Shown here in pieces: positions 14,878-51,433 of a stretch of 58,357 nt of DNA. The translations under genes and the position numbers were made by a program. The DNA is from Candidatus Omnitrophota bacterium. GTDB lineage: Bacteria; Omnitrophota; Gorgyraeia; Gygaellales; JAHJCI01. The DNA lies in assembly GCA_043812035.1 (NCBI GenBank), contig JBDRMR010000072.1:1-58357 (forward strand). The letters run 5' to 3'. Below the pieces are notes generated by a model. It had not been told where the DNA came from. It made no database searches and saw only the letters and a program-made list of their open reading frames with translations. The number at the start of each line of letters is the position of its first letter. The stretch's first letter is position 1.

Positions 14878-15080
14878 GAAAAATCGCTTTCGCGAAGCTT
14901 CTGGCGATTTTTCTTGATCCTGAGGCCGATAGGACGAGATTCTTCGCGAAGTTTACCCTAGAGCGAAGCGAAGGGCTCAGAATCGTCATCGAGTCCTGAA
15001 CGACCCTTCGGCAGGCTCAGGGTCGTCCTGAGCGAAGCGAAGGACGAAGCGAAGGGCGAAGGATCTTCGGGGGGTCTGGC
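14878..15080. repeat. composite intergenic repeat block (AAATCGC hairpin plus GCGAAGG-word element)
   Basis: gaaaaatcgc...gcgatttttc hairpin at 14879-14914. acgagattcttc...tcctgagcgaagcgaaggacgaagcgaagg at 14935-15054 is shared with 48802-48876. Confidence 0.8.
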
Positions 15081-37245: not shown

Positions 37246-37830
37246 ATGAAAGGGATTATCCGTAGAATAACTCTGTTGTGTTTTTTGTTTGTATCCGGCT
37301 GCGCATACCTGGGCTACATCCAGGATCCCTTTGTCGATATACCTAATTTTCACCAAGTTGACGATATCCTTTACAGAGGCGGCCAGCCCAATCAGGAAGG
37401 ATGGAATAAATTGAAGTCGTTGGGAATTAAGACAATAATCAGTCTGCGCGGCGAAGACGAGGAAACCGCCGAAGAAAAAGAAAAGACAGAAGCTATGGGA
37501 ATGAATTTCTATCATTTGCCTATGAGTATCTATGAGCGTCCCGCCGACGAACAGGTTCTCAAGTTCCTGGAAATAGTTTTAAATAAGGATAGCCAGCCGG
37601 TATTTGTCTATTGCACAAGCGGCCGGGACAGAACCGGCGCAATGGTCGCTATGTATCGGGTGGTAGTCTCGGGAATGACGATAAAACAAGCTTATAAAGA
37701 GGCAAAAGGGCTCGGATTTTGGCCTTATCACGGAGACGTCCCGGAGCTCAAAAATTTCATCCATCAACTTAAAGACAAAAAGCTCTATTTCGAAAAAGCA
37801 AAGGAGTTACTCTATGAAGACGGTAAGTAA
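37246..37830 (+). CDS. Cys-based protein tyrosine / dual-specificity phosphatase lipoprotein
   Basis: 194 aa. Lipobox FVSGC; CX5R P-loop VYCTSGRDRTG. Confidence 0.8.
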   Translation: MKGIIRRITLLCFLFVSGCAYLGYIQDPFVDIPNFHQVDDILYRGGQPNQEGWNKLKSLGIKTIISLRGEDEETAEEKEKTEAMGMNFYHLPMSIYERPADEQVLKFLEIVLNKDSQPVFVYCTSGRDRTGAMVAMYRVVVSGMTIKQAYKEAKGLGFWPYHGDVPELKNFIHQLKDKKLYFEKAKELLYEDGK

Positions 37831-38176
37831 ATTTCTGATTACGGTAACCGTATCGGCTTTGGTTTTCTGCGGCAAAGCCGAGGCTCATTCGGTAAGGCAC
37901 CACTTAATTAATATGGGTAAAAGCCTGGTAAGATTAACCTTCTCTCCCCTGTACGGAGTATTCGTTAAAGGGCCGAAGAACATCAAAGAAGCTTATGAAT
38001 ACGAGGTTTACGGCAGCGAAAAGCCGGAAGAAAAAGGGCTGTTGCGAAAAAAACTTTTTGCCTTCTGGCGCTCTCCGGGAGAAGAAGCAAAAGGCGCAAT
38101 AGACGGCCTGGTTGATAGCGTAGACGCGGGCGGCCGATTTATGAAAGAATTCCTTTCTATATTCTTCAGCGATTAA
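37814..38176 (+). CDS. secreted hypothetical protein
   Basis: 120 aa. Signal peptide ...FCGKAEA. Overlaps the phosphatase gene by 17 nt. No motif I recognise with confidence. Confidence 0.55.
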   Translation: MKTVSKFLITVTVSALVFCGKAEAHSVRHHLINMGKSLVRLTFSPLYGVFVKGPKNIKEAYEYEVYGSEKPEEKGLLRKKLFAFWRSPGEEAKGAIDGLVDSVDAGGRFMKEFLSIFFSD

Positions 38177-38377
38177 CCTCCCTGACAAAATCTGACCTAA
38201 CTTCAAGAACAAGAAAGGGTTAATGACGTACTTGGATTCTTACGAAACGCCTCTGTGCATGGAATTTCTTTATTTCATATGCTATACTTTAATTAAGAAG
38301 AATATAAAATCGGTAATATTGGCGGCATAATGTTGCCTTTATGAAGGTTAATCTCTTAAACAGGCAGGGGAGCAAAA

Positions 38378-38776
38378 ATGACTGTTTGCCGGAAAAAAAT
38401 ACTAATCCTGGCGTGTGTTTTGACTTTAGCGCTCCCCCTCTATGCCCAAGAAGCGGAATATTCTTTGAAAAATAATCCGGGCGGCACTGAAGCCGCCGTC
38501 ACTGCCTCTGACCAGCAGGAGAAAGCAGAAAGCTCTTTTTGGGAATTCGTAGACAAACAAGCGTATGCTGCCGCAGTAGATGACAAAGAAGAGAAGGAAA
38601 TATTAAGAGAGGAGTGGAGGAAGCTGCTGGGAGTGGATATCTTCTACCCGTATTTTAAAGAACAGGAAATAGAAGACTGGGTGAGCCAAAAGGCAAGCGT
38701 GGAAGTTTTTAAAATAAAAGGCCGTCCCACCATCGAATATAATCAATTCAAATACACCTTCAAAATAGAATTCTAA
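38378..38776 (+). CDS. secreted hypothetical protein
   Basis: 132 aa. Signal peptide ...ALPLYAQEA; SD GGGGAG upstream. Confidence 0.55.
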   Translation: MTVCRKKILILACVLTLALPLYAQEAEYSLKNNPGGTEAAVTASDQQEKAESSFWEFVDKQAYAAAVDDKEEKEILREEWRKLLGVDIFYPYFKEQEIEDWVSQKASVEVFKIKGRPTIEYNQFKYTFKIEF

Positions 38777-38831
38777 CCGCCCTTTAGAATTCCTTACGTA
38801 ATTTTTACAGAGATACAAGAAAATCGCCTTC

Positions 38832-38868
38832 GGCGATGACCTTTAGCGATTTTCAGTGGTTAGGAAAG
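38832..38868. repeat. AAATCGC hairpin between convergent genes (possible bidirectional terminator)
   Basis: gaaaatcgc cttcggcgatgaccttta gcgattttc. Same arms as the hairpin at 14879-14914. Confidence 0.4.
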
Positions 38869-38880
38869 TATTCTATCCCC

Positions 38881-39120
38881 TTACGGGCACAGGTACTTTC
38901 CTATACCATAAATTATTGTTATCAAGCCTATAACAATCAAAAACAACCCCATTATTCTGGTATTGCGGATTTCCCTCTTCATAGAAATAGGTTCAATCCT
39001 CCAGTTTATCTTTTCGTAAAACCGCGCTTGCATGCGTATAGCCGGGGAGGGGTTAAGAAATATAAATACGCCGATAACTATGCCGGCTCCGGAGATTAAC
39101 ATTGATATAAACCGTATCAT
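38881..39120 (-). CDS. small membrane protein (2-3 TM), translationally coupled to acsE
   Basis: 79 aa. The start overlaps the acsE stop by 1 nt (TAATG). Hydrophobic throughout. Confidence 0.55.
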   Translation of the reverse strand: MIRFISMLISGAGIVIGVFIFLNPSPAIRMQARFYEKINWRIEPISMKREIRNTRIMGLFLIVIGLITIIYGIGKYLCP

Positions 39121-39908
39121 TATTTTTTCCTGTATGCCTCAAGAAAAGAATCGCAGTAGATCTGTTTATTTAATATCAATTCGGCGGTAATCAGGGAATC
39201 CATTAGTTCTTTATCCAACGGGTCAAGTATTGCCGCATCTAATCCGTTAGTTATTGCCATAATTAAAAATATCCGGTTGACCAGGCTTCTCTGCTGCGCT
39301 CCCTGCGATACGTTACTCAGGCCGACAACCGTCTTGGGAGGAGGCTGCGAGATAATCTTTAATTCGGCCACCGCTTTTAAAGTATCCTCTAATTGCGCCT
39401 GGGCTACGTTTACCGGCAAAACCACGGGGTCAATGTACAGTTCCTCAAGAGGGAATCCCTTCTCCTGACAATCGGCAACGATAGTCGCGGCTAATTCCAG
39501 GCGCCTGTCTTTATCCTGCGGCACTCCCTTTTTATCCAGGGTCAGGCCGATTAAGCCGGCTTTATATTTTAAGGCCAGGGACACAAAGATATCCAATCTC
39601 TCTTTGTCTGCGGATGTGGAGTTAATCATCGCTTTATTCTTAGCCGCTTTCAGCCCTGCTTCAATAGCACTGGCTTTGGTGCTGTCCAAGCATAATATTT
39701 TATCGGTAACTTCCTGGACTACAGAAATAAGCCAGACTATATCCGAAGCCGGGTTACCTGAGGCGGGTCCGCAATTTATATCCAGAGCTTCACAGCCCGC
39801 ATCAACCTGCTGTTCAGCCAAACGCTGGATTACAGTTTTGTCCTTCTGCTGTATAGCCCGCCTGACATCTTTATACATCCCATTAATCAGTTCGCCAATA
39901 ATAAACAT
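39120..39908 (-). CDS. acsE: methyltetrahydrofolate:corrinoid Fe-S protein methyltransferase
   Basis: 262 aa. MFIIGELINGMYKDVRRAIQ...LDINCGP...LSNVSQG is collinear with, and the same length as, Moorella AcsE as I recall it. Confidence 0.9.
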   Translation of the reverse strand: MFIIGELINGMYKDVRRAIQQKDKTVIQRLAEQQVDAGCEALDINCGPASGNPASDIVWLISVVQEVTDKILCLDSTKASAIEAGLKAAKNKAMINSTSADKERLDIFVSLALKYKAGLIGLTLDKKGVPQDKDRRLELAATIVADCQEKGFPLEELYIDPVVLPVNVAQAQLEDTLKAVAELKIISQPPPKTVVGLSNVSQGAQQRSLVNRIFLIMAITNGLDAAILDPLDKELMDSLITAELILNKQIYCDSFLEAYRKK

Positions 39909-39932
39909 CTTAACCTCCTGGTATAATCTGGA

Positions 39933-39961
39933 ATTTTACAAACACGGGTTACCCGAACCAA
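39933..39961 (-). promoter_or_regulatory. putative promoter of acsE
   Basis: Minus-sense TTGGTT (39961-39956), 17 nt, TAAAAT (39938-39933). SD CAGGAGGT. Confidence 0.4.
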
Positions 39962-39977
39962 ATATCTGGGCAGCGGA

Positions 39978-41066
39978 TTATTGCGAAAAAATCTCCGGCT
40001 TATTTTCGTAAACCCGCAGGAGCGCCTCAACCACCTGCGGGTCGAATTGCGTGCCGGATTTTTTCTTTATCTCCTCGCACGCCTCAGGCAAACTCATTCC
40101 TCTGCGGTATGCGCGGTCGGAGGTAAGGGCATCCGTAACGTCGGCAACAGCAATAATTCTGGCTTCCAAAGAGATATCATCTCCCTTTAATCCCCGCGGA
40201 TAGCCCCCGCCGCCGTAAAACTCATGATGCTCGCCTATGCCGCGAACGAATCTTTTTAAGTGCGGAATGGAGCTTACGATCTTTATTCCGATTTCGGGAT
40301 GCTGTTCGATTATCTTATGCTCTTCGGAAGTAAGTTCTTCCGGTTTAGTCAAGATTAACTCGCTTATGCCTATTTTTCCTATGTCGTGCAGAATGGCGGC
40401 CAATTTAAGATTCTTGACCTGGTTTCGCGGCAAATTTAATTCTTCGGCGACACTCAGGGCAATTTTGGTAACCCTCTGCGAATGTCCGGCAGTGTAAGGG
40501 TCCTTGGCGTCGATAGCGGCGACAAGCGAGCTTATCAGGCCGATGAATAAGTCCTCGGTCTCCTTATACAGCTTAGCATTGACCAAAGCGATTGATGCAT
40601 AATTAGCCAAAATCTGCAGAATATGCTGTTGGCCGGAGTATAACAACTCGGAGGGATTTTTATTGCTTAAAGTCAGGACCCCGATGGTATTTTTTTCGGC
40701 TTCCAACCGTATGCTTAAAAAAGACCGGAACGGAAAATTTTTTTTATTTAATTCCGGATTTGCCCCGGTATCGTTAACTATCAGAGGAGCGGAAAAATCC
40801 ATAACCAGTTTGTTTATTTCTTCCCACGCTCCTAAGATTTTTAAGTTTTCCGATTCGTCTTCGCTGAATCCGCGCGCAGCCGCTAACCCCAGGCGGGCGC
40901 TCTTCTCATCCAGTATGAAGAGCGCCCCATAGTCATTATGGAACATGCGCTCGGCTTCTCTTAGAATGACTTCGTTGACCCGTTCGATGTCAAGCGCGGA
41001 AATAATTGTCCTGCTTATCTCTAAAAGAGTATTTAGAGCCAGTCCGTTAACTTTGTCCTTTAACAT
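39978..41066 (-). CDS. GAF-domain HD-GYP phosphodiesterase
   Basis: 362 aa. N-terminal GAF; AAILHDIGKIGI, HHEFYGGGGYPRGLKG. Confidence 0.85.
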   Translation of the reverse strand: MLKDKVNGLALNTLLEISRTIISALDIERVNEVILREAERMFHNDYGALFILDEKSARLGLAAARGFSEDESENLKILGAWEEINKLVMDFSAPLIVNDTGANPELNKKNFPFRSFLSIRLEAEKNTIGVLTLSNKNPSELLYSGQQHILQILANYASIALVNAKLYKETEDLFIGLISSLVAAIDAKDPYTAGHSQRVTKIALSVAEELNLPRNQVKNLKLAAILHDIGKIGISELILTKPEELTSEEHKIIEQHPEIGIKIVSSIPHLKRFVRGIGEHHEFYGGGGYPRGLKGDDISLEARIIAVADVTDALTSDRAYRRGMSLPEACEEIKKKSGTQFDPQVVEALLRVYENKPEIFSQ

Positions 41067-41077
41067 TTAGCCGTTAT

Positions 41078-41488
41078 TTACGGATTCCAGGTCTTCTTGG
41101 TTACCTCTACGTCTATATCCTTGGGGTCCCCGCTCAAATCCAACTGTCTGTTGCCGTTTATGTCTTCGACGCGGACTTTGACGCTCTGGGCGATATCGCT
41201 ATCAATCAGGTCGAAAGTCCTTATATGGCAAGGATTGGCTACGCACTCAGGGTTGCTGATGTCGAAGTAAGCCGGATTGCCGTATTTATACCTCCACACC
41301 CAGTATCCGTATTGTATGCCCAGTCCCCTGGCATAGCGGACCTCGTCTAGTCCTTTAAAAGAATAGGTAATTCCGTGTTGGCTCTGGATCAAAACTAACG
41401 TCGCAAAAGCAAGCGTGGAGACGGCAAGAAGAAACGCCAAAACGATAATCAGGCCTACCGAGCGGTTATTCTTCAAGTAATTATTCAT
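41078..41488 (-). CDS. PilX/GspK-like minor pseudopilin candidate
   Basis: 136 aa. NNRSVGLIIVLAFLLAVSTLAF N-terminal helix without the cleavage motif. Overlaps the upstream gene by 8 nt. Confidence 0.5.
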   Translation of the reverse strand: MNNYLKNNRSVGLIIVLAFLLAVSTLAFATLVLIQSQHGITYSFKGLDEVRYARGLGIQYGYWVWRYKYGNPAYFDISNPECVANPCHIRTFDLIDSDIAQSVKVRVEDINGNRQLDLSGDPKDIDVEVTKKTWNP

Positions 41489-41972
41489 ATCTTCTTAAGG
41501 TAACTTTGGTAATGAATCGGACCGGCTGAAGCCCGGAACTCTGGCGTCCCTGCATGGTCAGCTCTATAGTTAAAACCCTTCGCTTGGTCCTCTCGTTCTC
41601 TTCGGGCCCGGAAAAAATCAAGCCGCTTACGCCCCGGGCAATAATCTCCTGCGCATCCCCTGCCGGGCCGTATTTTACGCATAAACATGTATCGTCCAGC
41701 GTGTATTCGTACGTCTCGGTGTATCCTCCGGGAGTTATTTCCGAAAACGTTATTGTTGACGGCGGATCCGAAACATTTACGTCATCGGCCGCGCTGAGGT
41801 ATTTTACCATATGCTGCAGAGCGATATTAGCCTGATTTTGAACCTCGGCCTGGACGTTAAAGGAGGAAAAAAAGCCTGAGGCAGCCGTATACAACGCTCC
41901 GCCTGAAAGCGTCACTAAAGATATCAAACCCACCGCAAGCAAAAGTTCAATTAAACTTATGGCTCTTGCCAT
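41481..41972 (-). CDS. prepilin-type N-terminal domain protein (pseudopilin)
   Basis: Start set at ATG 41972. MARA-ISLIELLLAVGLISL with Glu at +5. The ORF-track N-terminal 40 aa overlap the upstream gene. Confidence 0.6.
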   Translation of the reverse strand: MARAISLIELLLAVGLISLVTLSGGALYTAASGFFSSFNVQAEVQNQANIALQHMVKYLSAADDVNVSDPPSTITFSEITPGGYTETYEYTLDDTCLCVKYGPAGDAQEIIARGVSGLIFSGPEENERTKRRVLTIELTMQGRQSSGLQPVRFITKVTLRRYE

Positions 41973-42337
41973 TGAATAGTTACCGTTATTTTCTTCCGAT
42001 CGGCAATTCCGTCGGGAGGTTGGTCTAAATCCTCGTCTATTATTATCCAGGTCCTCTGCCAACCGTATGGCAATATGCGCGTATCCTCGCAATCAACGGT
42101 TGGATATGTGCTACCTCCAGGAAGCTCCTGGAGACAATCATCGTCAAAATCCAAAGCCCCAAGCTCCTCCAATTTCTCCCGTGTAAAATTCAATACCTCT
42201 TGTTTGTACTGGGCTCTTTTCAGCTGCCTCTTCCCGGCGACAAACAGCCCGGCTATTCCCAAAAGTATTAGGCTCAGGATGACCATAGATACAATAATCT
42301 CGATCAAAGTCACGCTCTTCTGTCTCATTCTTTTCAA
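41957..42337 (-). CDS. prepilin-type N-terminal domain protein (GspI/PilV-like pseudopilin)
   Basis: 126 aa. MKRMRQKS-VTLIEIIVSMVILSL with Glu at +5. Confidence 0.65.
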   Translation of the reverse strand: MKRMRQKSVTLIEIIVSMVILSLILLGIAGLFVAGKRQLKRAQYKQEVLNFTREKLEELGALDFDDDCLQELPGGSTYPTVDCEDTRILPYGWQRTWIIIDEDLDQPPDGIADRKKITVTIQWQEP

Positions 42338-42340
42338 AAC

Positions 42341-43240
42341 TCAGTCATCGTCATCTTCTTCTTCCGACTCCTTATAGAATCCCGCCTTCTTTCCTCTGGA
42401 CTTTTTAGCTATCTCCCCTGACTTTTGCTTCCATTGACCGAGATGTTTACCCGAAGGAGAAACGGAATCCTCAAATACTACACCCTCGCTCCACACGTTT
42501 GCGTCCTGGGCTATAATCTGGACCTCATCTCCGGAATTCAGCGGATAACTGGAAAGGTCGCCGGCATCAGGGTTCTTATCGGTTACCGTTAAATTCTTAT
42601 CGGGGGCAACCTCTACCAACTGAACATAGGTATAATCCCCTTGACCCACGGTTTGCGGGTCGCCGTCCACGTCAACATCGTTGTCGTATACGGTTACGCA
42701 GAATGTCGTTCCAGTTACCCCTACCGTTGCCGTGGGCGTTTCTACGCTGAAAGTGGAGCTACCCAAAAGGACGCCGATATCAAATAAAGCTCCTCCGCTA
42801 TCCTGATAAACTGCGCTGACCGAATCTTCGCTTATCCCGCTGATTGTAAGCTGCCCTCCTTCTTCTATCGAAACTCTGTTGCTGACGTCGACCTCGGCGG
42901 ACCTGCTTAAGCCGACAACCACATAATTGTTGGTGGATGAATCAAGGTCATCCGGACAGCGAATCTTATCGCCTGTCTCCAGGGCCTGCTGCTCCCAGCC
43001 GTTTTCCCAGGTGCCTTCAGGAGTCGTAGCCCTATCAACCTCAGGCATTACCGTAGACGGTATTTCGTTTCCAAAAGAATCCGTGCAACCCCAGCCGAGG
43101 ATTCTTGACGCAGGTATTCTGGTTATTACTCCTTCTAACTTTAATTCTTCGGCTAAGGCATAGCCGTCCAGAAAAACAAATCCTAACGAACCGGCGAACA
43201 ACGAAATAGCGAAATAGCGAAATAGCGAAATAACTCTCAT
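42341..43240 (-). CDS. secreted FecR-domain protein with acidic C-terminal tail
   Basis: 299 aa. Signal peptide; ...STFSVETPTATVGVTGTTFCVTV FecR-like core; ends ESEEEDDDD. Confidence 0.6.
   Translation of the reverse strand: MRVISLFRYFAISLFAGSLGFVFLDGYALAEELKLEGVITRIPASRILGWGCTDSFGNEIPSTVMPEVDRATTPEGTWENGWEQQALETGDKIRCPDDLDSSTNNYVVVGLSRSAEVDVSNRVSIEEGGQLTISGISEDSVSAVYQDSGGALFDIGVLLGSSTFSVETPTATVGVTGTTFCVTVYDNDVDVDGDPQTVGQGDYTYVQLVEVAPDKNLTVTDKNPDAGDLSSYPLNSGDEVQIIAQDANVWSEGVVFEDSVSPSGKHLGQWKQKSGEIAKKSRGKKAGFYKESEEEDDDD
43202..43233. repeat. 8-nt tandem repeat (3 perfect plus 1 imperfect unit) in codons 4-14 of the FecR-like gene
   Basis: Plus-strand cgaaatag x3 then cgaaataa. The unit length is not a multiple of 3. 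Confidence 0.9.
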
Positions 43241-43243
43241 CTC

Positions 43244-45151
43244 TTACCCCCTCTTTATTACTACAACGGTTAAGTCATCGCCCAAAGGCGCGGGCCGCAT
43301 AAAATCTAAAACCGACTGTATGATTCGCTCGTTCAAAACCGGAGAAGGCAAAAAATCATTCTTCTCTATCGCATCTCTCAGGCGCATTTCTCCGAATTCT
43401 TCACCCCCCTTCTTTTTTGCCTCTAAAACCCCGTCCGTACATAAAACCAAGGTATCTCCTGGCGCAAGACTTATTGGCGACTGGACATATTCGCTGCCGT
43501 CAATAATACCCAAAGGCACTCCGCTGGCCGCATTAACAAAAATAATACCCTTGTGCTCGCTTTTAAGCGCAGCCTTTATGTGACCTGCGTTTGCGAAATA
43601 ACCTTCGCCTTCGCTGTCCAGGATTAACAAAATCGCCGTGGCAAATATGCCCGGAGGATATCTTTGTTTCAGTTCCTGATTTACCGACTCCAATATTTTT
43701 GCCGGCTGTAGATATAATTTAATATAAGTCCGGAATACGCTTATGGATAGGGCCATATATAAACTTGCCGGCACGCCTTTGCCGGTTACGTCGCCGATAA
43801 GAACGGCCAAGCGCCCTTCATCCAGTTTAATTATATCATAGAAATCGCCTCCGATATACCGGCAGGGTAAAAGCTTGGCAGCGACCTCAATCTCCGTCTG
43901 CTTAACCAGGCTGGTGCGCGAAAGAAAGCCCTGCTGGAGCCTGGCAGCTATTTCGAGGTCGTGTTCCAGCAATAAATGCTTCTGTCTCTCTTTGACGTAA
44001 GAAAAAAACAATAAAGAAAAAAAGATTGTTAACAATACTGCCGTAGGATAAACGAGGTCAATCCACAATCCCGACAGGACTAATAACGCCGCCGAAACAA
44101 AAATACAACCGACCGACAGAACACCCAGCCAGGGGACCCATCTGAAGGAAAAACGGCTGCGGTTGTAAATCCATACGGTCAAGCCCAAGAGAAAAACTAG
44201 AATTAATAGGTTAATGCCCCGGCTTGCTCTCTTAAGGTAGCCGGAGGTCAATATTGAATTAAATATGTTCGCATTAACTCCGACCATCGGATAAACCGTT
44301 TCCAGAGGAGTAGCGCCTATATCGCTAAAGCCGCCCATGCCGGTAGCGGTCAGGCCGATAAAACAAATCTTATCTTTTAATTCGGTTAAATCTAAACGGG
44401 GAATTAATCCCGACCCTAACTGCTCGTAACTTACCAAGATATCCACATAAGAATAATGCTTAAAGGTTTCCTTCCAGACTCCGGCATAATTTACAATGAA
44501 TCTGCCCCTGTCATCGAGCGGCAGCGACAAATCTTCCGGCCGCCTCCGGAGGTAATCGGAGGCCATTAAAATACTCAGCTGGGGAACGGTCTCTGCTTCT
44601 AATTTAATAAAAGGCCGGATATGCCGCCGCTTTCCGTCGATATCGGGCTCGATATTAATATGCCCGTAGCCCCGGGCAGTTTGTTTTAACCCGTTAATCA
44701 AATCCACTCCCCGTCCGTAAGGATAATAAACGTTCCTTGCGCTTTTTGTTGCCGAGATTAATTTGTCGTCTGAGGGACTCTCCCTATCGAATATAATATC
44801 AAAACAAATCTGGCGCGCTCCGTATTCCGAGAGTACCTGGATTAACCGGGCGTGGTATTTGCGGTCAAACGGCCAGCGCCCGATTTGATCGAGGCTATCG
44901 CCGCCAATCTCAACTATTGCTATCTCGGGCATAGCCGCCTGCGGCCCACGCATCCTGAGCCGCCAGTCAAAGGTTATCAGTTCGAAAATCTCCAGCCAGC
45001 GAAAATAACTTCCTAAACAGATTATTATCGCGATTATCAAAAATAATAAACCCCGCACCTTTCTTTGCAATAACGTCTTTCCAAAATCCGAAAAGGTGCG
45101 GGGTAAAAACTTCTTTGCTTTTCTTAACAGCACCGCGAAATCAATCTTCAT
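43244..45151 (-). CDS. CHASE2 sensor fused to PP2C/SpoIIE-type serine phosphatase
   Basis: 635 aa. IAIVEIGGDSLDQIGRWPFDRKYHARLI (CHASE2), TM helices, GGDFYDI and GDVTGKGVPASLYMA (PP2C). Confidence 0.85.
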   Translation of the reverse strand: MKIDFAVLLRKAKKFLPRTFSDFGKTLLQRKVRGLLFLIIAIIICLGSYFRWLEIFELITFDWRLRMRGPQAAMPEIAIVEIGGDSLDQIGRWPFDRKYHARLIQVLSEYGARQICFDIIFDRESPSDDKLISATKSARNVYYPYGRGVDLINGLKQTARGYGHINIEPDIDGKRRHIRPFIKLEAETVPQLSILMASDYLRRRPEDLSLPLDDRGRFIVNYAGVWKETFKHYSYVDILVSYEQLGSGLIPRLDLTELKDKICFIGLTATGMGGFSDIGATPLETVYPMVGVNANIFNSILTSGYLKRASRGINLLILVFLLGLTVWIYNRSRFSFRWVPWLGVLSVGCIFVSAALLVLSGLWIDLVYPTAVLLTIFFSLLFFSYVKERQKHLLLEHDLEIAARLQQGFLSRTSLVKQTEIEVAAKLLPCRYIGGDFYDIIKLDEGRLAVLIGDVTGKGVPASLYMALSISVFRTYIKLYLQPAKILESVNQELKQRYPPGIFATAILLILDSEGEGYFANAGHIKAALKSEHKGIIFVNAASGVPLGIIDGSEYVQSPISLAPGDTLVLCTDGVLEAKKKGGEEFGEMRLRDAIEKNDFLPSPVLNERIIQSVLDFMRPAPLGDDLTVVVIKRG

Positions 45152-45206
45152 CCCGTTAGAAATATTCTCTTCTGTCCCCTTAGAAATTACAAATTTCTAA
45201 CGGGAT
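45152..45206. repeat. TAGAAAT word hairpin in the spacer between the STAS-kinase and CHASE2-PP2C genes
   Basis: cccgttagaaat...atttctaacggg (12-bp outer arms) and an inner ttagaaatt-aca-aatttctaa. Confidence 0.8.
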
Positions 45207-45899
45207 TCATACATTCTTAATCATCTCTATAGTATTACCTTTTTTATCGAATCTAACCTCATCCATAAAATTAAAAATTAATGACAACCCTTTGCCCCTG
45301 GTTCTTGTATCAAACCCTCCTCCCTCATCGCTGACCGCTACCTCCAGCCGGCGGTCATCTAATTTGTAATCAACCGTTGCCAGCTTCTGGCTCTCTAACT
45401 TATTGCCGTGCTTTATGGCATTGACCACAGCTTCTTCTACGCAGAGTCTGATTTCGGTAAGAAAATACTTGTCCAGATTCAGCGAAGATAAAGATTCCAA
45501 CACCTTGTTGCTTATTGATTTTACATAAACGGGATTTGAAGGAATCTGCCATCTCCAGGATTGTCCGAATCCGGCCACCGCCTCTTCCTCGGAATTGTAA
45601 ACAGGCATAATCTGAACGAGGTGGGTAACTTCTAAGCTCTTCCTGACCACTGAGGTGAGGTTTGTAAGCGCCAGGGAATTAAGGCCTTTTTGTTTTAATT
45701 TATTATTGACCTCGAGGAACAGACCGAGTCCGGAACTGTCCGCATAAGTTAAATCCGCCCCGTGAATAACGATGTTTTTGCTCTCTTGCAAAAAAACCTC
45801 AAATTCCTGCTGTGCTCTTTCTCTGCTGTTGATAGTTAATTCTCCCTGGAGAGAAAGGACTAACGCGATAGGGGTTTTGGATTTAACGCTGATTTTCAT
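45207..45899 (-). CDS. fusion of STAS anti-sigma antagonist domain and RsbW/SpoIIAB-type serine kinase domain
   Basis: ATG 45899 with SD GGGGAAAG. STAS motif DLTYADSSGLGLF (phosphorylatable Ser present). Kinase N-box EEAVVNAIKHGN and G-box VSDEGGGFD. Confidence 0.8.
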   Translation of the reverse strand: MKISVKSKTPIALVLSLQGELTINSRERAQQEFEVFLQESKNIVIHGADLTYADSSGLGLFLEVNNKLKQKGLNSLALTNLTSVVRKSLEVTHLVQIMPVYNSEEEAVAGFGQSWRWQIPSNPVYVKSISNKVLESLSSLNLDKYFLTEIRLCVEEAVVNAIKHGNKLESQKLATVDYKLDDRRLEVAVSDEGGGFDTRTRGKGLSLIFNFMDEVRFDKKGNTIEMIKNV

Positions 45900-46845
45900 T
45901 GCTTTCCCCGAAGCATTCCTCAATGTACGTGTTTACGTAATTAATTGAGTTTGGGTGACGCATGATTAGAAGATCGGCGCCGGACTGAAGCAGCGCCACT
46001 GCAGTAGCGGCTTCCCAGATTCTGCCCCGCTCGACCTCGGGCCCCCACTGTCCAAATTCATCCTGCTTTGCCTTGGCTTCTTTTGCCCTCCAGGCTTCCT
46101 GGCCTACAAAACAAACAAACGGCATTGCCAGCATCTTATCTCCGGATAGGGCAGCAAGCCTGGCTCGCTCCATTATCGAATACGCGTATTCCAAGCCGTA
46201 ACCCAGCGCACCGATAGTCGGATTAATTACCATTCTTTCCGCGGGCATACCCATATCGGAAATAAGAATATTCAATTGCTTAGCAATGTTTATATCTATC
46301 GGCGATTCGGCGATAATATTGTGTCCGTCGGCTAGGACAGCTACGGTCAACGTCCGATAGTTATCCTGAACCGCATCGCCGAACAAACATCTCCTTCCTT
46401 GGGCTGCTTGAGAGCAGACAGGGAGCACCTCGTTATCTTTGGTATCGTCTCCGCACCCTAGAATTACAAGAGGCACATCTATTTTATTAATGAGATTACC
46501 GACCAGCTTGGCCTCTTCCTCGGGAGACCTATTTCCGAAATCGGGATGTGCGCCCTGCAGCTTTAAACATAAAATTTGGGCATTATATTCCTGAACGCAT
46601 TTCTTCGCCCATTCCAAAGGACTCTTAAATACATCCTTGTATTGAACGGCTAATTCCTCGGGCCAGTCGGAAGGAGCGACATCCCAGATTTCAAAGGCGA
46701 TTCTGGGCCTGTTCGGTATTTTTCCTTCTTTAAACAAGAAGGGCAATCCCTCCTCGCCGCCGATCTTAATGACCTTTGGTTCCTTTCCGAGCACAACTTC
46801 GTTAATCTTTGCCGAGTATTTCTGTAAAACCGGTTCTGCAGCCAT
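45883..46845 (-). CDS. acsD: corrinoid Fe-S protein small subunit (CODH/ACS delta)
   Basis: 320 aa. INEVVLGKEPKVIKIGGEEGLPFLF...RIAFEIWDV. Confidence 0.85.
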   Translation of the reverse strand: MAAEPVLQKYSAKINEVVLGKEPKVIKIGGEEGLPFLFKEGKIPNRPRIAFEIWDVAPSDWPEELAVQYKDVFKSPLEWAKKCVQEYNAQILCLKLQGAHPDFGNRSPEEEAKLVGNLINKIDVPLVILGCGDDTKDNEVLPVCSQAAQGRRCLFGDAVQDNYRTLTVAVLADGHNIIAESPIDINIAKQLNILISDMGMPAERMVINPTIGALGYGLEYAYSIMERARLAALSGDKMLAMPFVCFVGQEAWRAKEAKAKQDEFGQWGPEVERGRIWEAATAVALLQSGADLLIMRHPNSINYVNTYIEECFGESNENQR

Positions 46846-46847
46846 AG

Positions 46848-48776
46848 CTATACCTTCGCGTTAAGGAATCTTGAGTTATCCGTATGCGGGAAAAACATAG
46901 CTGCTATATATTCATCCATATAGGCGGATTCGATAGACAGCTCGTAATAAGTAACCTTCTTTGCGATCTCTTTTACCTTCTCCATTGCCTGATAAGAAAG
47001 TAAAACCCGGCACGCGCCTGCCAGGGAACTATTCCCCACGAAGATAAGCCTGTCCCGCTTAATATTCGGGAACAACCCTATACTTACCGCATTCTCAATA
47101 TTTATATATGTTCCGAATCCCCCGGCGACGAATATCTTTTTAATATCGTTAAAGTCCAGGTTTGTCTGTCTCACTAAAATCGAGGCAGCGGCAAATATAG
47201 CCGCCTTGGCGCGCTTTATATTATCGATGTCGTCTTCGGTAATTATAATATCCGAGCTTGATTCCGCTTCCTCTTTAAATGCGATGACGAATTCAAGGCC
47301 GGAATCGCCCTTTCGCAGGCGGGGGCTTTTGATTTGATTGAACTTTCCGTCTTTATTGATTGCGCCTGCTTTTAACAAGCCGGACACGATGTCGATGTAG
47401 CCTGAGCCGCAAATCCCCAGAGCCCTTCCCCGGCCGATAACTTCAAAGCCGACGCTATAGTCTTTAGGAGAAATCTTTACATTTTGTATTGCTCCTCTGG
47501 CAGCCCTTATGCCGCAAGTCAAGCCGCTGCCTTCAAATGCTGGTCCGGCCGAAGCGGCGCAGCCGATTAAAAACTCATTATTTCCCAGAACAATCTCGCC
47601 GTTTGTGCCGATGTCGATTAATAAGCATAACTGTTCTTCCTTATATATGCCGCAAGACAGAATCCCCGAACAAGTATCCCCGCCCAAATAGCTGGAGACT
47701 CCGGGAATGCAGGATAAAAGGCCGCGCGGATTTATTTTTATTCCCGCCTCGGTAGCCCGTATCGTCGGGACTAAATTTGCTGTCGGAACATATGGCTCTT
47801 TTCTGATGTAGGTTGGGTCTACCCGCAGAAGAAGATGAATCATTGTGGTATTCCCCGCGCACAGAACGCAGTTGACGTCGTTTAAATCAATGTTGTTTTC
47901 CGCAGCCAGGTCCTTAATCATCTCGTTCATAGTGTCGATAACCGCGTGGTGCAGCTTTTCCAAACCGTGCGTCTCGCGCGCGAAGATTATGCGGCTGATG
48001 ATATCGCTGCCGAAAGCGGCCTGCTTATTATATGCTGCCTTTGTGCCGAGAGCCTTTTTTTTGTTTAAATCCACCAGCTGCGAAGAAATGGTGGTGGTCC
48101 CGATATCAAAACAAATCCCGTAATTCTTGCTCGATGTGTCTCCCGGCTCAACCAGAACAATCTCTGTAGTGCCGTTCCTTTTTCCGAGAGTAACGGTTAC
48201 CTTCCATTCTGAGCCGCGCAGGATCTGCCCGAGCCTGCGTATGTTAACCAGTCCGGTCTGCATTACGGGGATATCGTGAGCCCGGCGAATCGCACGGTAC
48301 AATCTTTCTAGGTCGCTTATCCGGTCGGCGTGGTCAGGCGGAGGCAGCTCTAAAAATAATTTTGTAGCTAAAGGAGAATGAAGAAAGACTCCTTCTTCTA
48401 AAATCGGCTTCGGCGCCTCTATTTCCTCCGCCTTCGAATACAGGCCTTTTAATCTTAAATCAATTTCTTCCTGGGTTAACCTCTCGAAATCCAACCTGGA
48501 CTCGGGAGGAATTAAGACATCCAGGTCGCTTTGAACCAATGCCTGACAGGCCAGATAATAGCCCTGCCTTCTCTGCTCAGGCGAAATCCTCCCGGATGGC
48601 TGGCCTAAGACCTCGCCCTTCCTTACGATTGCTTTACACCTGCCGCAGACGCCCTCGCCGCCGCAGCTTGAATTAATGTGGATATTGGCTGTCAAAGCCG
48701 CGGCCAGGATAGTCTTGCCTTTCTCTATCTCGACGGTTTTATTGTCCGGATAAAAGGTAACTTTAAATTTTCCCAT
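46848..48776 (-). CDS. reductive activator of corrinoid Fe-S protein (RACo; 2Fe-2S ferredoxin plus ASKHA ATPase)
   Basis: 642 aa. Plant-type ferredoxin motif SSCGGEGVCGRCK, then DIGTTT and DIGTNGE ASKHA phosphate motifs. Confidence 0.85.
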   Translation of the reverse strand: MGKFKVTFYPDNKTVEIEKGKTILAAALTANIHINSSCGGEGVCGRCKAIVRKGEVLGQPSGRISPEQRRQGYYLACQALVQSDLDVLIPPESRLDFERLTQEEIDLRLKGLYSKAEEIEAPKPILEEGVFLHSPLATKLFLELPPPDHADRISDLERLYRAIRRAHDIPVMQTGLVNIRRLGQILRGSEWKVTVTLGKRNGTTEIVLVEPGDTSSKNYGICFDIGTTTISSQLVDLNKKKALGTKAAYNKQAAFGSDIISRIIFARETHGLEKLHHAVIDTMNEMIKDLAAENNIDLNDVNCVLCAGNTTMIHLLLRVDPTYIRKEPYVPTANLVPTIRATEAGIKINPRGLLSCIPGVSSYLGGDTCSGILSCGIYKEEQLCLLIDIGTNGEIVLGNNEFLIGCAASAGPAFEGSGLTCGIRAARGAIQNVKISPKDYSVGFEVIGRGRALGICGSGYIDIVSGLLKAGAINKDGKFNQIKSPRLRKGDSGLEFVIAFKEEAESSSDIIITEDDIDNIKRAKAAIFAAASILVRQTNLDFNDIKKIFVAGGFGTYINIENAVSIGLFPNIKRDRLIFVGNSSLAGACRVLLSYQAMEKVKEIAKKVTYYELSIESAYMDEYIAAMFFPHTDNSRFLNAKV

Positions 48777-48801
48777 TTTAAATGAGCACGCAACTTATGG
48801 A

Positions 48802-48922
48802 ACGAGATTCTTCACTTTGTCCTTCGTCACTTCGTTCCTCAGGACAATCCTGAGCGAAGCGAAGGACGAAGCGAAGGACGAAGCGAAGGGTCTCTCTCAC
48901 CTCCGTTGGAGGTGAGACCTCC
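48802..48922. repeat. GCGAAGG-word element (second copy, one extra 12-nt unit) plus a 10-bp hairpin
   Basis: acgagattcttc...tcctgagcgaagcgaaggacgaagcgaagg(acgaagcgaagg)g, then tctcacctcc-gttg-gaggtgaga. Confidence 0.85.
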
Positions 48923-48927
48923 AAAAA

Positions 48928-50259
48928 TTATAAGTTTTTCAAAAACGACGGTATGCCGGAGGCTTCTTTCGGCCCTACCTCGACCTGCCAATTCGTCTTC
49001 TCTTCCAAATCTCCGCTCATTACAGCCACGTATCCAGGAATAATCAAGCGTTTGTGGGAAACCTTCTCTTTTATATCGAGCTTGTCCATAGTTGCGGCAA
49101 TTACCTCTGCGGTAAATTTCTCCGCAGCCCAGGCGGTCAAGACCGACATACCTTCGGTATCTACGGTTACGATGTAAGAGGGGACTTTACTTGCCTCAAC
49201 TTCTCCCAGCACCGTGTAATAAGTCAAAGAAAAATTGGTGGTAACCAGAACCGGAGACTTATTGCTGACGCTGCCTACCGGATAAATCTTAGACTCAACC
49301 TGCAACGGCTTCTGCGGGTCAGTGTAAATGTTCTGTCTTAAAGTCAGGAGCGCTAATACCTCCCAGGATTGTGTTCCTTTAATTAAAACTACGCCGGCGT
49401 ATTTTGCGATATAAGTAGCTGCTTCAAGCGCTTCTTTAAAAGGCCGGGAGCAATCATCTATAATTGCCATGGAAGGAAATCCCAGGCTGCGCTCAGACCG
49501 ATAAAGACTGGCGCGCCGGATTTGAGTCAAATCCCAGAGCTTTTCTGCGATACTTTTCCTGCCGGTATCCAGAACCAGGTCTTCTATCCCCTGATTAATC
49601 AGCTTTTGGGTTATTTCCGATAATTCTGACAGCTCCTGAGCATGTACCGCAACCGGAACTTTAAACTCTGCGGCTATCTTACTAAGGTCTTCGTAATTGT
49701 CCCTGTCTAAGCAATAAATCAGGGGCTTCTGCGCGGAAATAATCTTCAACGCCTCTTTTTGCGCCTGGGCGTCTTTACTGATTAAAACCAGCCCCAGGTT
49801 AGTATTCTCTTTAATCAACTTTACCGTCTGAACGAATTTAGCCGCGTCTTTATTCTGCCTTATTGCTATCAAATTAGGGCGAAGCATAGAGCCGATTCTC
49901 TCAAAGCTTAATGCGTTAATATGCTTTACGGTCTTAAGGATTTCTTCCTCTTGGAGACTGTCCTCGATAATAAAACCCAGACCGCACGGATGATGGAACT
50001 TTTCCTCGTGGCGGAACATCACGGTCTCGTTCCCGACCTCCAATTTATTCTCGCCTTCGCCAATTGCAACCAGTCTTATCGGAGGCCGGCTCGCTGCTTC
50101 CAAAGTCCGCTTGGCCTCCTCGGATAAATAAGGGCATTTCACAGCCTCCACCTGCCTCTTGGCTAACTGCATAGCAAAGGCCAAGCATGTAGCGAACCCG
50201 CACTCCCGGCAGTTTGTCTTGGGCAACAGCTTATATATATCCAATCCTGATAGTGTCAT
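48928..50259 (-). CDS. acsC: corrinoid Fe-S protein large subunit (CODH/ACS gamma)
   Basis: 443 aa. N-terminal 4Fe-4S motif TNCRECGFATCLAFAM. Confidence 0.9.
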   Translation of the reverse strand: MTLSGLDIYKLLPKTNCRECGFATCLAFAMQLAKRQVEAVKCPYLSEEAKRTLEAASRPPIRLVAIGEGENKLEVGNETVMFRHEEKFHHPCGLGFIIEDSLQEEEILKTVKHINALSFERIGSMLRPNLIAIRQNKDAAKFVQTVKLIKENTNLGLVLISKDAQAQKEALKIISAQKPLIYCLDRDNYEDLSKIAAEFKVPVAVHAQELSELSEITQKLINQGIEDLVLDTGRKSIAEKLWDLTQIRRASLYRSERSLGFPSMAIIDDCSRPFKEALEAATYIAKYAGVVLIKGTQSWEVLALLTLRQNIYTDPQKPLQVESKIYPVGSVSNKSPVLVTTNFSLTYYTVLGEVEASKVPSYIVTVDTEGMSVLTAWAAEKFTAEVIAATMDKLDIKEKVSHKRLIIPGYVAVMSGDLEEKTNWQVEVGPKEASGIPSFLKNL

Positions 50260-50282: not shown

Positions 50283-50699
50283 TTAGGTGTTAGGTGCTAG
50301 GTCAAAAAGTTTATAATAATCTGTACTATACAACTTTTTTGCTAATAATTCAGAATCCCGATGTGTTTTTGTTTCTTTCAAATCCTTAATGAGATTATCC
50401 TTTAATTTTAAACTAATCTTTTTGTGATTAACCAGATTATAGAATTCTAACCTGATTCCAGAACCGTTTAATTTCTCGATATTCCCCTTGCCATAAGTTG
50501 CGCCGGTAGACAACTGGAGGCCGTCGATGAGACAACTTTTGGGCTTCTTATTTGCCCCCGAAACTTTTACTTTTAGACCAAAATATTTCTTTGCCTTTAA
50601 TTTTTTAAGGGCTAACTCACCGGCAAGGACACCCAGGGTCAAATAAGGGCCGAGGTGTCCGTGGAATCTCACTGTTTCTTTAAGCGTTATCTCCTTCAT
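50283..50699 (-). CDS. FmdE-domain protein
   Basis: 138 aa. RFHGHLGPYLTLGVLAG resembles the FHGH motif of FmdE/FwdE. No zinc ribbon. Confidence 0.6.
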   Translation of the reverse strand: MKEITLKETVRFHGHLGPYLTLGVLAGELALKKLKAKKYFGLKVKVSGANKKPKSCLIDGLQLSTGATYGKGNIEKLNGSGIRLEFYNLVNHKKISLKLKDNLIKDLKETKTHRDSELLAKKLYSTDYYKLFDLAPNT

Positions 50700-50722
50700 A
50701 TTGCCGACCCATCAATTAATAA

Positions 50723-51433
50723 TCAAGGATTGCGGATGACCAAACTTGCGAAATAAGCCGCGCCGAAGCCGTTATCTATATTCACTACCGAGACCCCGGG
50801 AGAACAGGCATTAAGCATTGTCAGCAAGGGGGCTAAGCCGGAAAAATTGGCACCGTAGCCAATGCTGGTAGGAACGGCAATTACCGGACAGGCAACCAAA
50901 CCGCTAACGATACTGGCTAAGGCTCCTTCCATTCCGGCGATAACGATAATCACCCGGCATTTCCTCAATATGCCCACCTTTCTCAAAACCCGATGAACGC
51001 CCGCTACACCCACATCGTATAATTTAATCGCGCGATTGTCCATAAATTCCAAAGTTGCCGCCGCCTCTTCCGCTATCGGAATGTCCGATGTTCCGGCGCA
51101 GACTATCCCGACGGTTCCGGTTTTCTCTGCCGAGCCTGCCGACTTGCCTAATCCCTTACGTGCGCCGTAAGGCTTAACATAAGCTATTCTGCCGGCCTGG
51201 TTATATTTCATTTGAGAATAAAATTTTTTAAGGTATAAGAACGTCTGCTTATTCAAGCGGGTTAACAGCAGCGGCTGTCTTTGTTTAAGTATTATCCCGG
51301 CAATTTCCCTGATCTGCTCCTTTGTCTTTCCCGGGCAATATACAACTTCGGGAAATCCCCGCCGCCTGAATCTTTCCAAATCCACACACGCAAAATCTCT
51401 TTCCTCTACAGCTTTTGCAAAGACCCTTGGCAT
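50723..51433 (-). CDS. larB: nickel-pincer cofactor biosynthesis carboxylase/hydrolase LarB (PurE-like)
   Basis: 236 aa. GFPEVVYCPGKTKEQI, CAGTSDIPIAEEA, DVGVAGVHR, AGMEGALASIVSGLV, VNIDNGFGAA. Confidence 0.8.
   Translation of the reverse strand: MPRVFAKAVEERDFACVDLERFRRRGFPEVVYCPGKTKEQIREIAGIILKQRQPLLLTRLNKQTFLYLKKFYSQMKYNQAGRIAYVKPYGARKGLGKSAGSAEKTGTVGIVCAGTSDIPIAEEAAATLEFMDNRAIKLYDVGVAGVHRVLRKVGILRKCRVIIVIAGMEGALASIVSGLVACPVIAVPTSIGYGANFSGLAPLLTMLNACSPGVSVVNIDNGFGAAYFASLVIRNP

Follow-up and report, generated by a model that had tools for sequence, protein, structure and literature searches.

In the RsbU-RsbV-RsbW and SpoIIE-SpoIIAA-SpoIIAB modules, a PP2C phosphatase and a GHKL kinase domain set the phosphorylation of a serine in a STAS domain. 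In the SiaABCD system of Pseudomonas aeruginosa, a small partner protein likewise has its phosphorylation adjusted by a PP2C phosphatase and a kinase, and in turn controls a cyclic di-GMP (c-di-GMP) enzyme (PMC7647112, PMC8457831). The minor pilins and PilY1 of P. aeruginosa are surface sensors that feed c-di-GMP signalling (PMC5979040, PMC8806160), and the Burkholderia 'BiofilmReg' operon encodes a response regulator, a LysM/FecR protein and a CHASE2 histidine kinase (PMC5192318). Here, we describe a 5.9-kb block of seven signalling and pilin-like genes, hereafter called the island, which lies between acsD and acsE in the gene cluster of the corrinoid iron-sulfur protein (CFeSP) of a Candidatus Omnitrophota bacterium (assembly GCA_043812035.1). 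The window analyzed is contig JBDRMR010000072.1 at its full length of 58,357 nt. We consider it fairly likely that the island represents a lineage-specific form of a cassette for signalling common in Omnitrophota, that it works through the partner switch outlined below, that it was inserted once at this junction, and that it has no dedicated role in the acs system.

Genes were called from the window open reading frames (ORFs) together with Pfam and NCBIfam scans. The seven genes between acsD and acsE are intact and are all encoded on the minus strand. Following acsD (45883-46845; CFeSP small subunit, NCBIfam NF003376, 439 bits), which forms the upstream boundary, the island begins with a gene for a 230-aa fusion of a STAS domain and a HATPase_c_2 domain (45207-45899; Pfam 56 and 72 bits, respectively). 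The next gene encodes a 635-aa CHASE2 and SpoIIE/PP2C phosphatase (43244-45151; Pfam CHASE2 166 bits, SpoIIE 157 bits), followed by a 299-aa FecR-like secreted protein with a signal peptide (42341-43240), whose Pfam FecR match of 21.0 bits is below the cut-off of 24. Three pilin-like proteins are encoded at 41957-42337 (protein 1, PilV/ComGE-like minor pilin), 41481-41972 (protein 2, 163 aa, beginning MARAISLIELL) and 41078-41488 (protein 3, PilX/GspK-like). The last island gene encodes a 362-aa GAF and HD-GYP protein, a putative c-di-GMP phosphodiesterase (39978-41066; Pfam HD_5 147 bits plus GAF), and the downstream boundary is acsE, encoding the methyl-H4folate:CFeSP methyltransferase (39120-39908; NCBIfam PRK07535, 299 bits against a cut-off of 259). 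The initial annotation had reported a sensory and pseudopilin island at this position, and our ORF and domain analysis confirms all seven genes. It had also noted that the STAS-kinase gene overlaps the 3' end of acsD by 17 nt, which is read directly from the sequence as ATGAAAATCAGCGTTAA. The start codon used here is backed by the N-termini of orthologues (MKI.VKS), and genes called independently on a public contig of identical sequence agree with it. The remaining junctions down to acsE are, in order, gaps of 55, 3 and 3 nt, overlaps of 16 and 8 nt, and gaps of 11 and 69 nt.

The island resembles the Bacillus modules in combining a PP2C phosphatase, a STAS domain with a DSSG motif and a predicted GHKL serine kinase/anti-sigma domain, with structural TM scores of 0.8-0.9. 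However, it differs from them in having STAS and kinase on one polypeptide, in an ATP lid that is 15-18 residues shorter, and in the predicted extracytoplasmic CHASE2 domain of its phosphatase. In addition, no sigma factor gene is linked to it, and the unit includes an HD-GYP gene as well as genes for pilin-like proteins. The logic of SiaABCD would be the same, but its output is a diguanylate cyclase, whereas the output proposed for the island is a c-di-GMP hydrolase. Moreover, SiaC is not a classical STAS protein, and SiaABCD comprises no CHASE2, FecR or pilin-like genes. The window phosphatase matches SiaA with 35 bits, compared with a family cut-off of 700. The BiofilmReg operon has in common with the island that a secreted FecR-domain or FecR-like protein is encoded beside a CHASE2 membrane sensor, but it signals through a histidine kinase and a response regulator and contains no PP2C switch, HD-GYP or pilin-like genes. 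The minor pilins and PilY1 of P. aeruginosa offer an analogy only, in that a minor-pilin-like set and a larger secreted protein are tied to signalling and c-di-GMP; unlike that system, the window has no PilY1 homologue, pilus assembly genes or prepilin peptidase among its scanned ORFs.

To place the island in its genomic context, species-representative genomes were scanned with AcsD, giving 73 loci with which the window proteins were compared by tblastn. Nearly all loci come from Omnitrophota metagenome-assembled genomes. Third-party records give some of the loci the label Planctomycetales/Planctomycetia, Deltaproteobacteria or 'bacterium', and two distant AcsD matches are from Bathyarchaeia. 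The genes acsC, RACo, acsD and acsE occur in the same order in about 70 Omnitrophota loci, within a widely kept arrangement of tsaD-mgtC-bactofilin-AIRC-like-FmdE-like-acsC-RACo-acsD-acsE ... tilS-ftsH-folP. In the window, acsC encodes the CFeSP large subunit (48928-50259, minus strand; Pfam CdhD 334 bits plus FeS), and RACo the reductive activator of the corrinoid protein (46848-48776, minus strand; Pfam RACo_C_ter, Raco_middle, RACo_linker and Fer2). Among the 67 species-level loci with both genes on one contig, acsD and acsE are adjacent in 64, with a gap of at most 293 nt (median about 30), which bears out the earlier statement that the island interrupts genes that are otherwise neighbours. 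The island was seen in the window and in eight further contigs, always at the acsD-acsE junction and within one small clade. One of these contigs (L004, from CAZQEY01) carries the full island in the same gene order as the window, and the other seven (L002, L008 from JBDRHJ01, L081, L083, L156, L157 from GCA_043819655.1, and L158) hold partial copies at the same junction. In another lineage (L044, L049), a single cation-efflux (CDF) gene stands between acsD and acsE (L049:10969-11832). Since this gene was inserted independently, the junction tolerates unrelated insertions.

In a bootstrapped neighbour-joining tree of AcsC, RACo and AcsD (1319 columns), the island carriers group together with 57.5% bootstrap support. 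They are nested in a clade with 100% support; in its remaining members, L003 and L005, the island is absent and acsD adjoins acsE. Because the carriers group inside a clade whose remaining members have the uninterrupted order, the simplest history is one insertion after L003 and L005 had branched off. One gain followed by two losses is an alternative, though not the simplest.

Homologous clusters are found at other loci in Omnitrophota. One of these is linked to accA and to the genes of the Mla lipid transporter, and was found at seven loci (L075, L082, L086, L087, L159, L160 and L161) in the order DUF212-LysM/YkuD-accA-RsbW-like kinase-STAS-mlaE-mlaF-mlaD-(FecR-350-aa barrel-like protein)-CHASE2-PP2C-GAF-HD-GYP. 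Five domains of the island, i.e., the kinase, STAS, FecR, CHASE2-PP2C and GAF-HD-GYP, have homologues in this cluster of the same phylum, with the window proteins being 49% identical for the HD-GYP protein and 41% for the phosphatase. The Mla-linked cluster differs from the island in standing beside accA/mla rather than acs, in encoding STAS and kinase as separate genes with a full-lid kinase, in having no pilin-like genes, and in its HD-GYP gene, which directly follows the phosphatase gene. A rearranged version that does contain pilins is present in L155, with a kinase, a CHASE2-PP2C phosphatase 44% identical to that of the window, an HD-GYP protein, a FecR-like/DUF4114 protein, three pilin-like genes and a major-pilin-like gene carrying the canonical RAFTLLE motif. 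In both the Mla-linked clusters and L155, the GAF-HD-GYP gene comes immediately after CHASE2-PP2C, often with a 4-nt overlap, and the Mla-linked HD-GYP homologues in this position are 45-53% identical to that of the window. Two further loci (L079, L084) have the order greA-FecR-STAS-kinase-CHASE2-PP2C, and two others (L077 and L078, 10001-21917) have CHASE2-PP2C, kinase and STAS genes next to magnetosome-like genes (MamI, a trypsin-PDZ protease and cation-efflux proteins) and FeoAB. The latter suggest a magnetotactic Omnitrophota genome with the same partner switch in yet another context. Since homologous clusters recur at these loci, the five island domains have counterparts typical of the phylum.

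The homologues of the CHASE2-PP2C protein fall into two groups that follow the same division. The close group has 62-81% identity, and every member with visible context adjoins acsD, whereas the large Omnitrophota group at 33-44% does not lie beside acs. A scan of JGI metagenomes with the CHASE2-PP2C protein returned two close relatives only, the other matches being mostly distant PP2C domains. A single genome, GCA_043817155.1, holds both an Mla-linked cassette (contig L161) and an uninterrupted acsC-RACo-acsD-acsE cluster (contig L034). This is in substance the situation that the initial annotation had itself named as contradicting its interpretation, with the cassette at an unrelated locus and acsD and acsE contiguous, although this Mla-linked version comes without pilin-like genes and with separate STAS and kinase genes. 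The initial annotation had stressed the direct genetic linkage of the sensing module with the enzymes that couple the methyl and carbonyl branches; a functional tie between them is not supported, given a homologous cassette beside accA/mlaEFD in other Omnitrophota.

The gene content, the motif conservation, the distribution across taxa, the homology with the Mla-linked cluster and the grouping of the carriers in one small clade are direct observations. The mechanism that we propose draws on established knowledge of the domain families; the direction of the signal, its output and co-transcription are our inferences. The outward-facing CHASE2 domain would sense an envelope or surface cue, probably together with the FecR-like protein and the minor-pilin-like trio, and would set the activity of the cytoplasmic PP2C phosphatase. 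Phosphatase and GHKL kinase domain would then set the phosphorylation of the serine in the DSSG motif of STAS, making a partner switch in which one polypeptide carries both STAS and kinase. This state would be passed on to the GAF-HD-GYP protein and thereby change c-di-GMP levels. A role as co-sensor is suggested for the FecR-like protein, since CHASE2 sensors are paired with a FecR-domain or FecR-like protein both here and in the Burkholderia operon (PMC5192318). The GAF-HD-GYP protein is the most likely output because, in L155 and in the Mla-linked clusters, its gene is the one right after that of the phosphatase. The proteins that usually accompany the cassette, which are the Mla transporter and an L,D-transpeptidase-like protein, with pilin-like proteins added in this clade, point to signalling that concerns the cell envelope or surface. 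A single insertion between acsD and acsE, in an ancestor shared by a small clade of Omnitrophota, would have brought the block to this site, where it has been kept intact since.

Some observations weigh against an incidental position and against parts of this mechanism. The position of the island is stable across genomes with 65-80% protein identity, and the arrangement may have taken on a function linked to acs expression. In the window, L004 and L156, acsE lies about 15-69 nt behind the island (about 15 nt in L156), and its expression probably requires either read-through from the island or a promoter located within it. A second, independent linkage of acs with an HD-GYP gene is found in L026, which does not carry the island, as an unrelated 291-aa membrane HD-GYP protein without GAF is encoded at L026:8986-9861 and overlaps the acsE stop by 4 nt. 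For the mechanism itself, the short ATP lid makes kinase activity uncertain, and the classical kinase/phosphatase cycle may not hold. Pilin-like status is secure for protein 1 only of the three, and the case for the HD-GYP protein as target of the switch is one of gene linkage only.

A rival reading is that the island is a dedicated regulator of acs, in which sensor, switch and c-di-GMP control the activity or expression of CFeSP, RACo or AcsE, either by the STAS-kinase binding or phosphorylating an Acs protein or by control of read-through into acsE. In its favor are the intra-operon position kept in nine contigs of one clade, the start of the island that overlaps or nearly overlaps acsD in five lineages (window, L004, L008, L156 and L157), the short spacers ahead of acsE, and the HD-GYP gene coupled to acsE in L026. 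We nevertheless regard a dedicated regulator as unlikely, as the cassette is elsewhere tied to accA/mla, GreA and other genes, including in a genome with an intact acs cluster, and the acs cluster does without the island in 64 of 67 related species. No island domain is specific to C1 metabolism. In addition, the overlap with acsD is not conserved, the junction ranging from the 17-nt overlap of the window to a 217-nt spacer in L002 and L081, and a rough estimate places one HD-GYP neighbour among about 70 acs loci within chance. A variant of this reading, in which this clade co-opted the cassette so that sensing of a surface or host gates C1 metabolism, and acsE read-through or CFeSP/RACo activity depends on c-di-GMP or the state of the STAS-kinase protein, appears to us very unlikely; if true, it would connect the use that these bacteria make of the Wood-Ljungdahl methyl branch with an attached or predatory lifestyle. 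The position of the island is most likely an insertion into a tolerant operon junction with no sign of dedicated CFeSP control, and a regulatory meaning for acs is unproven at best, the linkage more likely being incidental.

A different question is whether the switch has another output, with the RsbW-like domain acting as an anti-sigma factor or binding a protein encoded elsewhere, or with the system as a whole controlling pilus or pseudopilus assembly directly, and the HD-GYP protein working in parallel. The kinase domain is structurally closest to the anti-sigma factors SpoIIAB and RsbW, its short ATP lid could mean binding rather than catalysis, and pilin-like genes lie within the cassette. 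Nevertheless, none of the scanned window ORFs matches a sigma factor, PilZ or GGDEF family, no sigma factor is listed in the gene calls of related cassettes, and the GAF-HD-GYP gene directly after CHASE2-PP2C in the Mla-linked clusters and L155 argues for a functional pair. We therefore find another output unlikely, though deserving of some weight. That an otherwise conserved operon is interrupted could also mean that the island is a recently acquired mobile element or an assembly chimera, which we find scarcely credible. The GC content of the island matches that of its flanks, the repeat search found no direct or inverted repeats bounding it, and no integrase or transposase family was matched among the ORFs scanned; a mobile element was rejected on these empty repeat and GC-shift searches. 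The homologues of the island proteins are Omnitrophota proteins, and the same junction is present in independent NCBI, JGI, ENA and Logan assemblies. Furthermore, island proteins and Acs proteins have diverged in parallel. In a comparison of the window with L004, identity is 70-73% for the cytoplasmic proteins of the island, 70-80% for AcsC, RACo, AcsD and AcsE, and 38-60% for the exported FecR-like and pilin-like proteins. This is the pattern expected if the island genes are old and functional and have been inherited vertically, with the surface parts evolving faster.

The STAS-kinase fusion joins an RsbV/SpoIIAA-like STAS domain and an RsbW/SpoIIAB-like GHKL kinase domain in one polypeptide. 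Its matches in PDB extend across the DSSGLG phosphosite for SpoIIAA and across the N, G1 and G2 boxes for RsbW and SpoIIAB. Among 14 orthologues, D54, S55 and G57 of the phosphosite are invariant and S56 is nearly so, and the kinase motifs are kept as well (N-box E..N..H, G1 DEGxGF and G2 GxGL). In the window protein and in all 14 orthologues, the ATP lid, which is the segment between G1 and G2, falls 15-18 residues short of that of SpoIIAB and RsbW. In the Mla-linked clusters and in L155, where the kinase is a protein of its own, the lid has its full length. An AF2 model of the fusion (pLDDT 83) aligns with SpoIIAB, RsbW and SpoIIAA/RsbV at TM scores of 0.8-0.9, and Foldseek also matches it to the histidine kinase DesK. 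Kinases of the DesK type are active with a short lid, and kinase activity of the fusion is possible despite its short lid. In an exhaustive profile search, the island-clade fusion was represented by one sequence at 50% identity, and one more distant short-lid STAS-kinase fusion (P0277) was found on a 1.8-kb contig, after nadA. The same search turned up numerous further STAS/kinase fusions, with the two domains in either order, and the idea that the fusion as such is unique was rejected.

In the phosphatase, CHASE2 spans residues 42-322 with hydrophobic segments on either side, and the PP2C catalytic motifs GGDFYD, GDVTGKG, TDG and GDDLT are all present in the sequence. By these features the protein is a predicted membrane sensor phosphatase with an extracytoplasmic CHASE2 domain and a cytoplasmic PP2C domain of the SpoIIE/RsbU type. 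The assignment of the FecR-like protein is helped by a profile of its orthologues, which matches bona fide FecR neighbours of Omnitrophota CHASE2-PP2C proteins with 98% probability (E = 1.6e-13). The HD-GYP motifs GHSQRV, LHDIGK, QHPE, EHHE, GGGYP and VADVTD are likewise all present, consistent with a putative c-di-GMP phosphodiesterase.

The initial annotation described three pseudopilin-like proteins, of which protein 1 passes the N_methyl cut-off (27.5 bits against 21.2), while proteins 2 and 3 have matches among some of their orthologues only. Protein 1 also has weak NCBIfam matches to ComGE and PilV, and its orthologue alignment retains E at +5. Its true start is probably the ATG at 42328 (MRQKSVTLIE...). 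In protein 2 the motif A|ISLIE is visible, and although the Pfam scan of the window copy gave no match, N_methyl is matched in two of five orthologues (E = 2.3e-4), and the orthologue in L155 has the canonical GFTLLE motif. Protein 3 has a hydrophobic N-terminus without Glu at +5. Its window copy matches no family and PilX_N is matched in one of five orthologues (E = 7.9e-4); the protein is conserved in L004, L156, L157 and L155. Profile searches of PDB with the three families gave noise apart from a marginal match of protein 2 to PilA (9laa, E = 0.013). A single-sequence AlphaFold model of protein 2 was set aside, as its pLDDT was 59.5 and Foldseek found no meaningful match, even though its helix-then-sheet topology is pilin-like. 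Together, the trio resembles a minor-pilin set of the PilV/PilW/PilX type as far as these sequence features go. No family match to a prepilin peptidase or to a pilus assembly ATPase or platform protein was found among the scanned ORFs of the 58-kb window, and these may be encoded elsewhere in the genome.

The initial annotation had argued for co-transcription from the overlap with acsD. Co-transcription is plausible because the genes overlap or abut and no terminator-like hairpin was found between the island genes, all those scored there lying inside coding regions; the overlap itself, however, is not conserved, as L002 has the 217-nt spacer. A promoter and terminator scan of 38.5-51.8 kb gave site counts not above the shuffled expectation, so the operon structure is not settled by the scan. 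The island is probably co-transcribed with acsC-RACo-acsD and acsE. A hairpin with a T run at 38823..38837 (minus strand), after the last ORF, is the sole terminator-like minus-strand site outside coding sequence at 38800-46900, and is likely the end of the transcription unit. In the spacer of L002 (4693-4911), and likewise in that of L081, repeated CACAGAG/CTCTGTG motifs and a -10-like TGGTATAAT are found, and the latter is a possible island-specific promoter in these two loci.

The 79-aa ORF at 38881-39120 (minus strand) encodes a two-helix membrane protein with a sub-threshold DUF202 match alone, and had been regarded as coupled to acsE. It does have one base in common with the acsE stop, but tblastn across about 70 related loci gave zero matches; because the ORF is not conserved, its membership in the acs/island unit is doubtful. 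Within the island, a perfect 14-bp inverted repeat, ATCCCGTTAGAAAT / ATTTCTAACGGGAT, at 45150..45206 (minus strand) forms a hairpin that ends at the ATG of the CHASE2-PP2C gene. Its predicted RNA fold has an energy of -21.7 kcal/mol (z = -4.3), and it may limit translation of the phosphatase. The hairpin is not conserved, and the corresponding junctions of relatives range from a 4-nt overlap to a 357-nt spacer.

The component families are already documented, as are CHASE2-PP2C proteins, STAS/kinase fusions, FecR proteins beside CHASE2, and partner switches with an input to c-di-GMP. Neither the combination of a short-lid STAS-kinase fusion with pilin-like genes and an HD-GYP gene, nor its stable residence inside the acs operon of one Omnitrophota clade, was found in the literature searched. 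If our explanation is true, the island is a clear case of a regulatory cassette that entered a highly conserved metabolic operon and was long retained, and it warns against inferring function from linkage in one genome. These bacteria are ultra-small and possibly dependent on a host (PMC10066038), and the pilin-associated variant may serve them to sense contact with a surface or host. The cassette found across the phylum joins CHASE2-PP2C, an RsbW-like kinase, STAS and HD-GYP to the Mla lipid transporter, and thus bears on the phospho-regulation of MlaB, which is an open question (PMC7367683). At L159:3193-11065 and the six sister loci, the RsbW-like kinase and a DSSG-type STAS are encoded directly upstream of mlaE-mlaF-mlaD, and the phosphatase and GAF-HD-GYP protein downstream. 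The STAS protein of this cluster could be the MlaB equivalent under kinase/phosphatase control.

Further observations concern the acs cluster and its surroundings. The remainder of the window consists of housekeeping genes, and in line with the initial annotation, which had noted the absence of acsA and acsB, no catalytic subunit of carbon monoxide dehydrogenase/acetyl-CoA synthase was found among scanned window ORFs of at least 110 aa. RACo abuts acsD in the window (46845-46848) and in L003, L004 and L005, without the gap of about 750 nt that separates the two genes in most or many Omnitrophota loci. In L020, the sole locus inspected, this gap (9255-10010) encodes a 251-aa MinD/CooC-like P-loop protein, as read from its GKGGTGKT motif. 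A second acsE-like gene, 35-41% identical to the window AcsE, is present 2-3 kb downstream of acsE in distant Omnitrophota loci (L025, L038, L056, L057, L061, L062, L064, L065, L067 and L069). The spacer between acsC and RACo (48777-48927) has a very stable predicted structure (-73.6 kcal/mol, z = -7) made of CTTCGCTTCGTCCTTCG repeats. An exact copy of the 17-mer occurs at 15038-15054, about 34 kb away, and the element looks like a small REP-like repeat. Upstream of acsC, an FmdE-like gene and a gene with an AIRC domain are found at 50283-51433. The AIRC gene is present in most loci where the upstream flank was recovered and the FmdE-like gene in about half of those, and both may be unrecognised accessory genes of the acs cluster. 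On the other side, a divergent block at 37246-38776 (plus strand), between tilS and the acs unit, encodes a dual-specificity/tyrosine phosphatase-like protein and two ORFs without a family match, and this tilS-acs interval is variable across the phylum.

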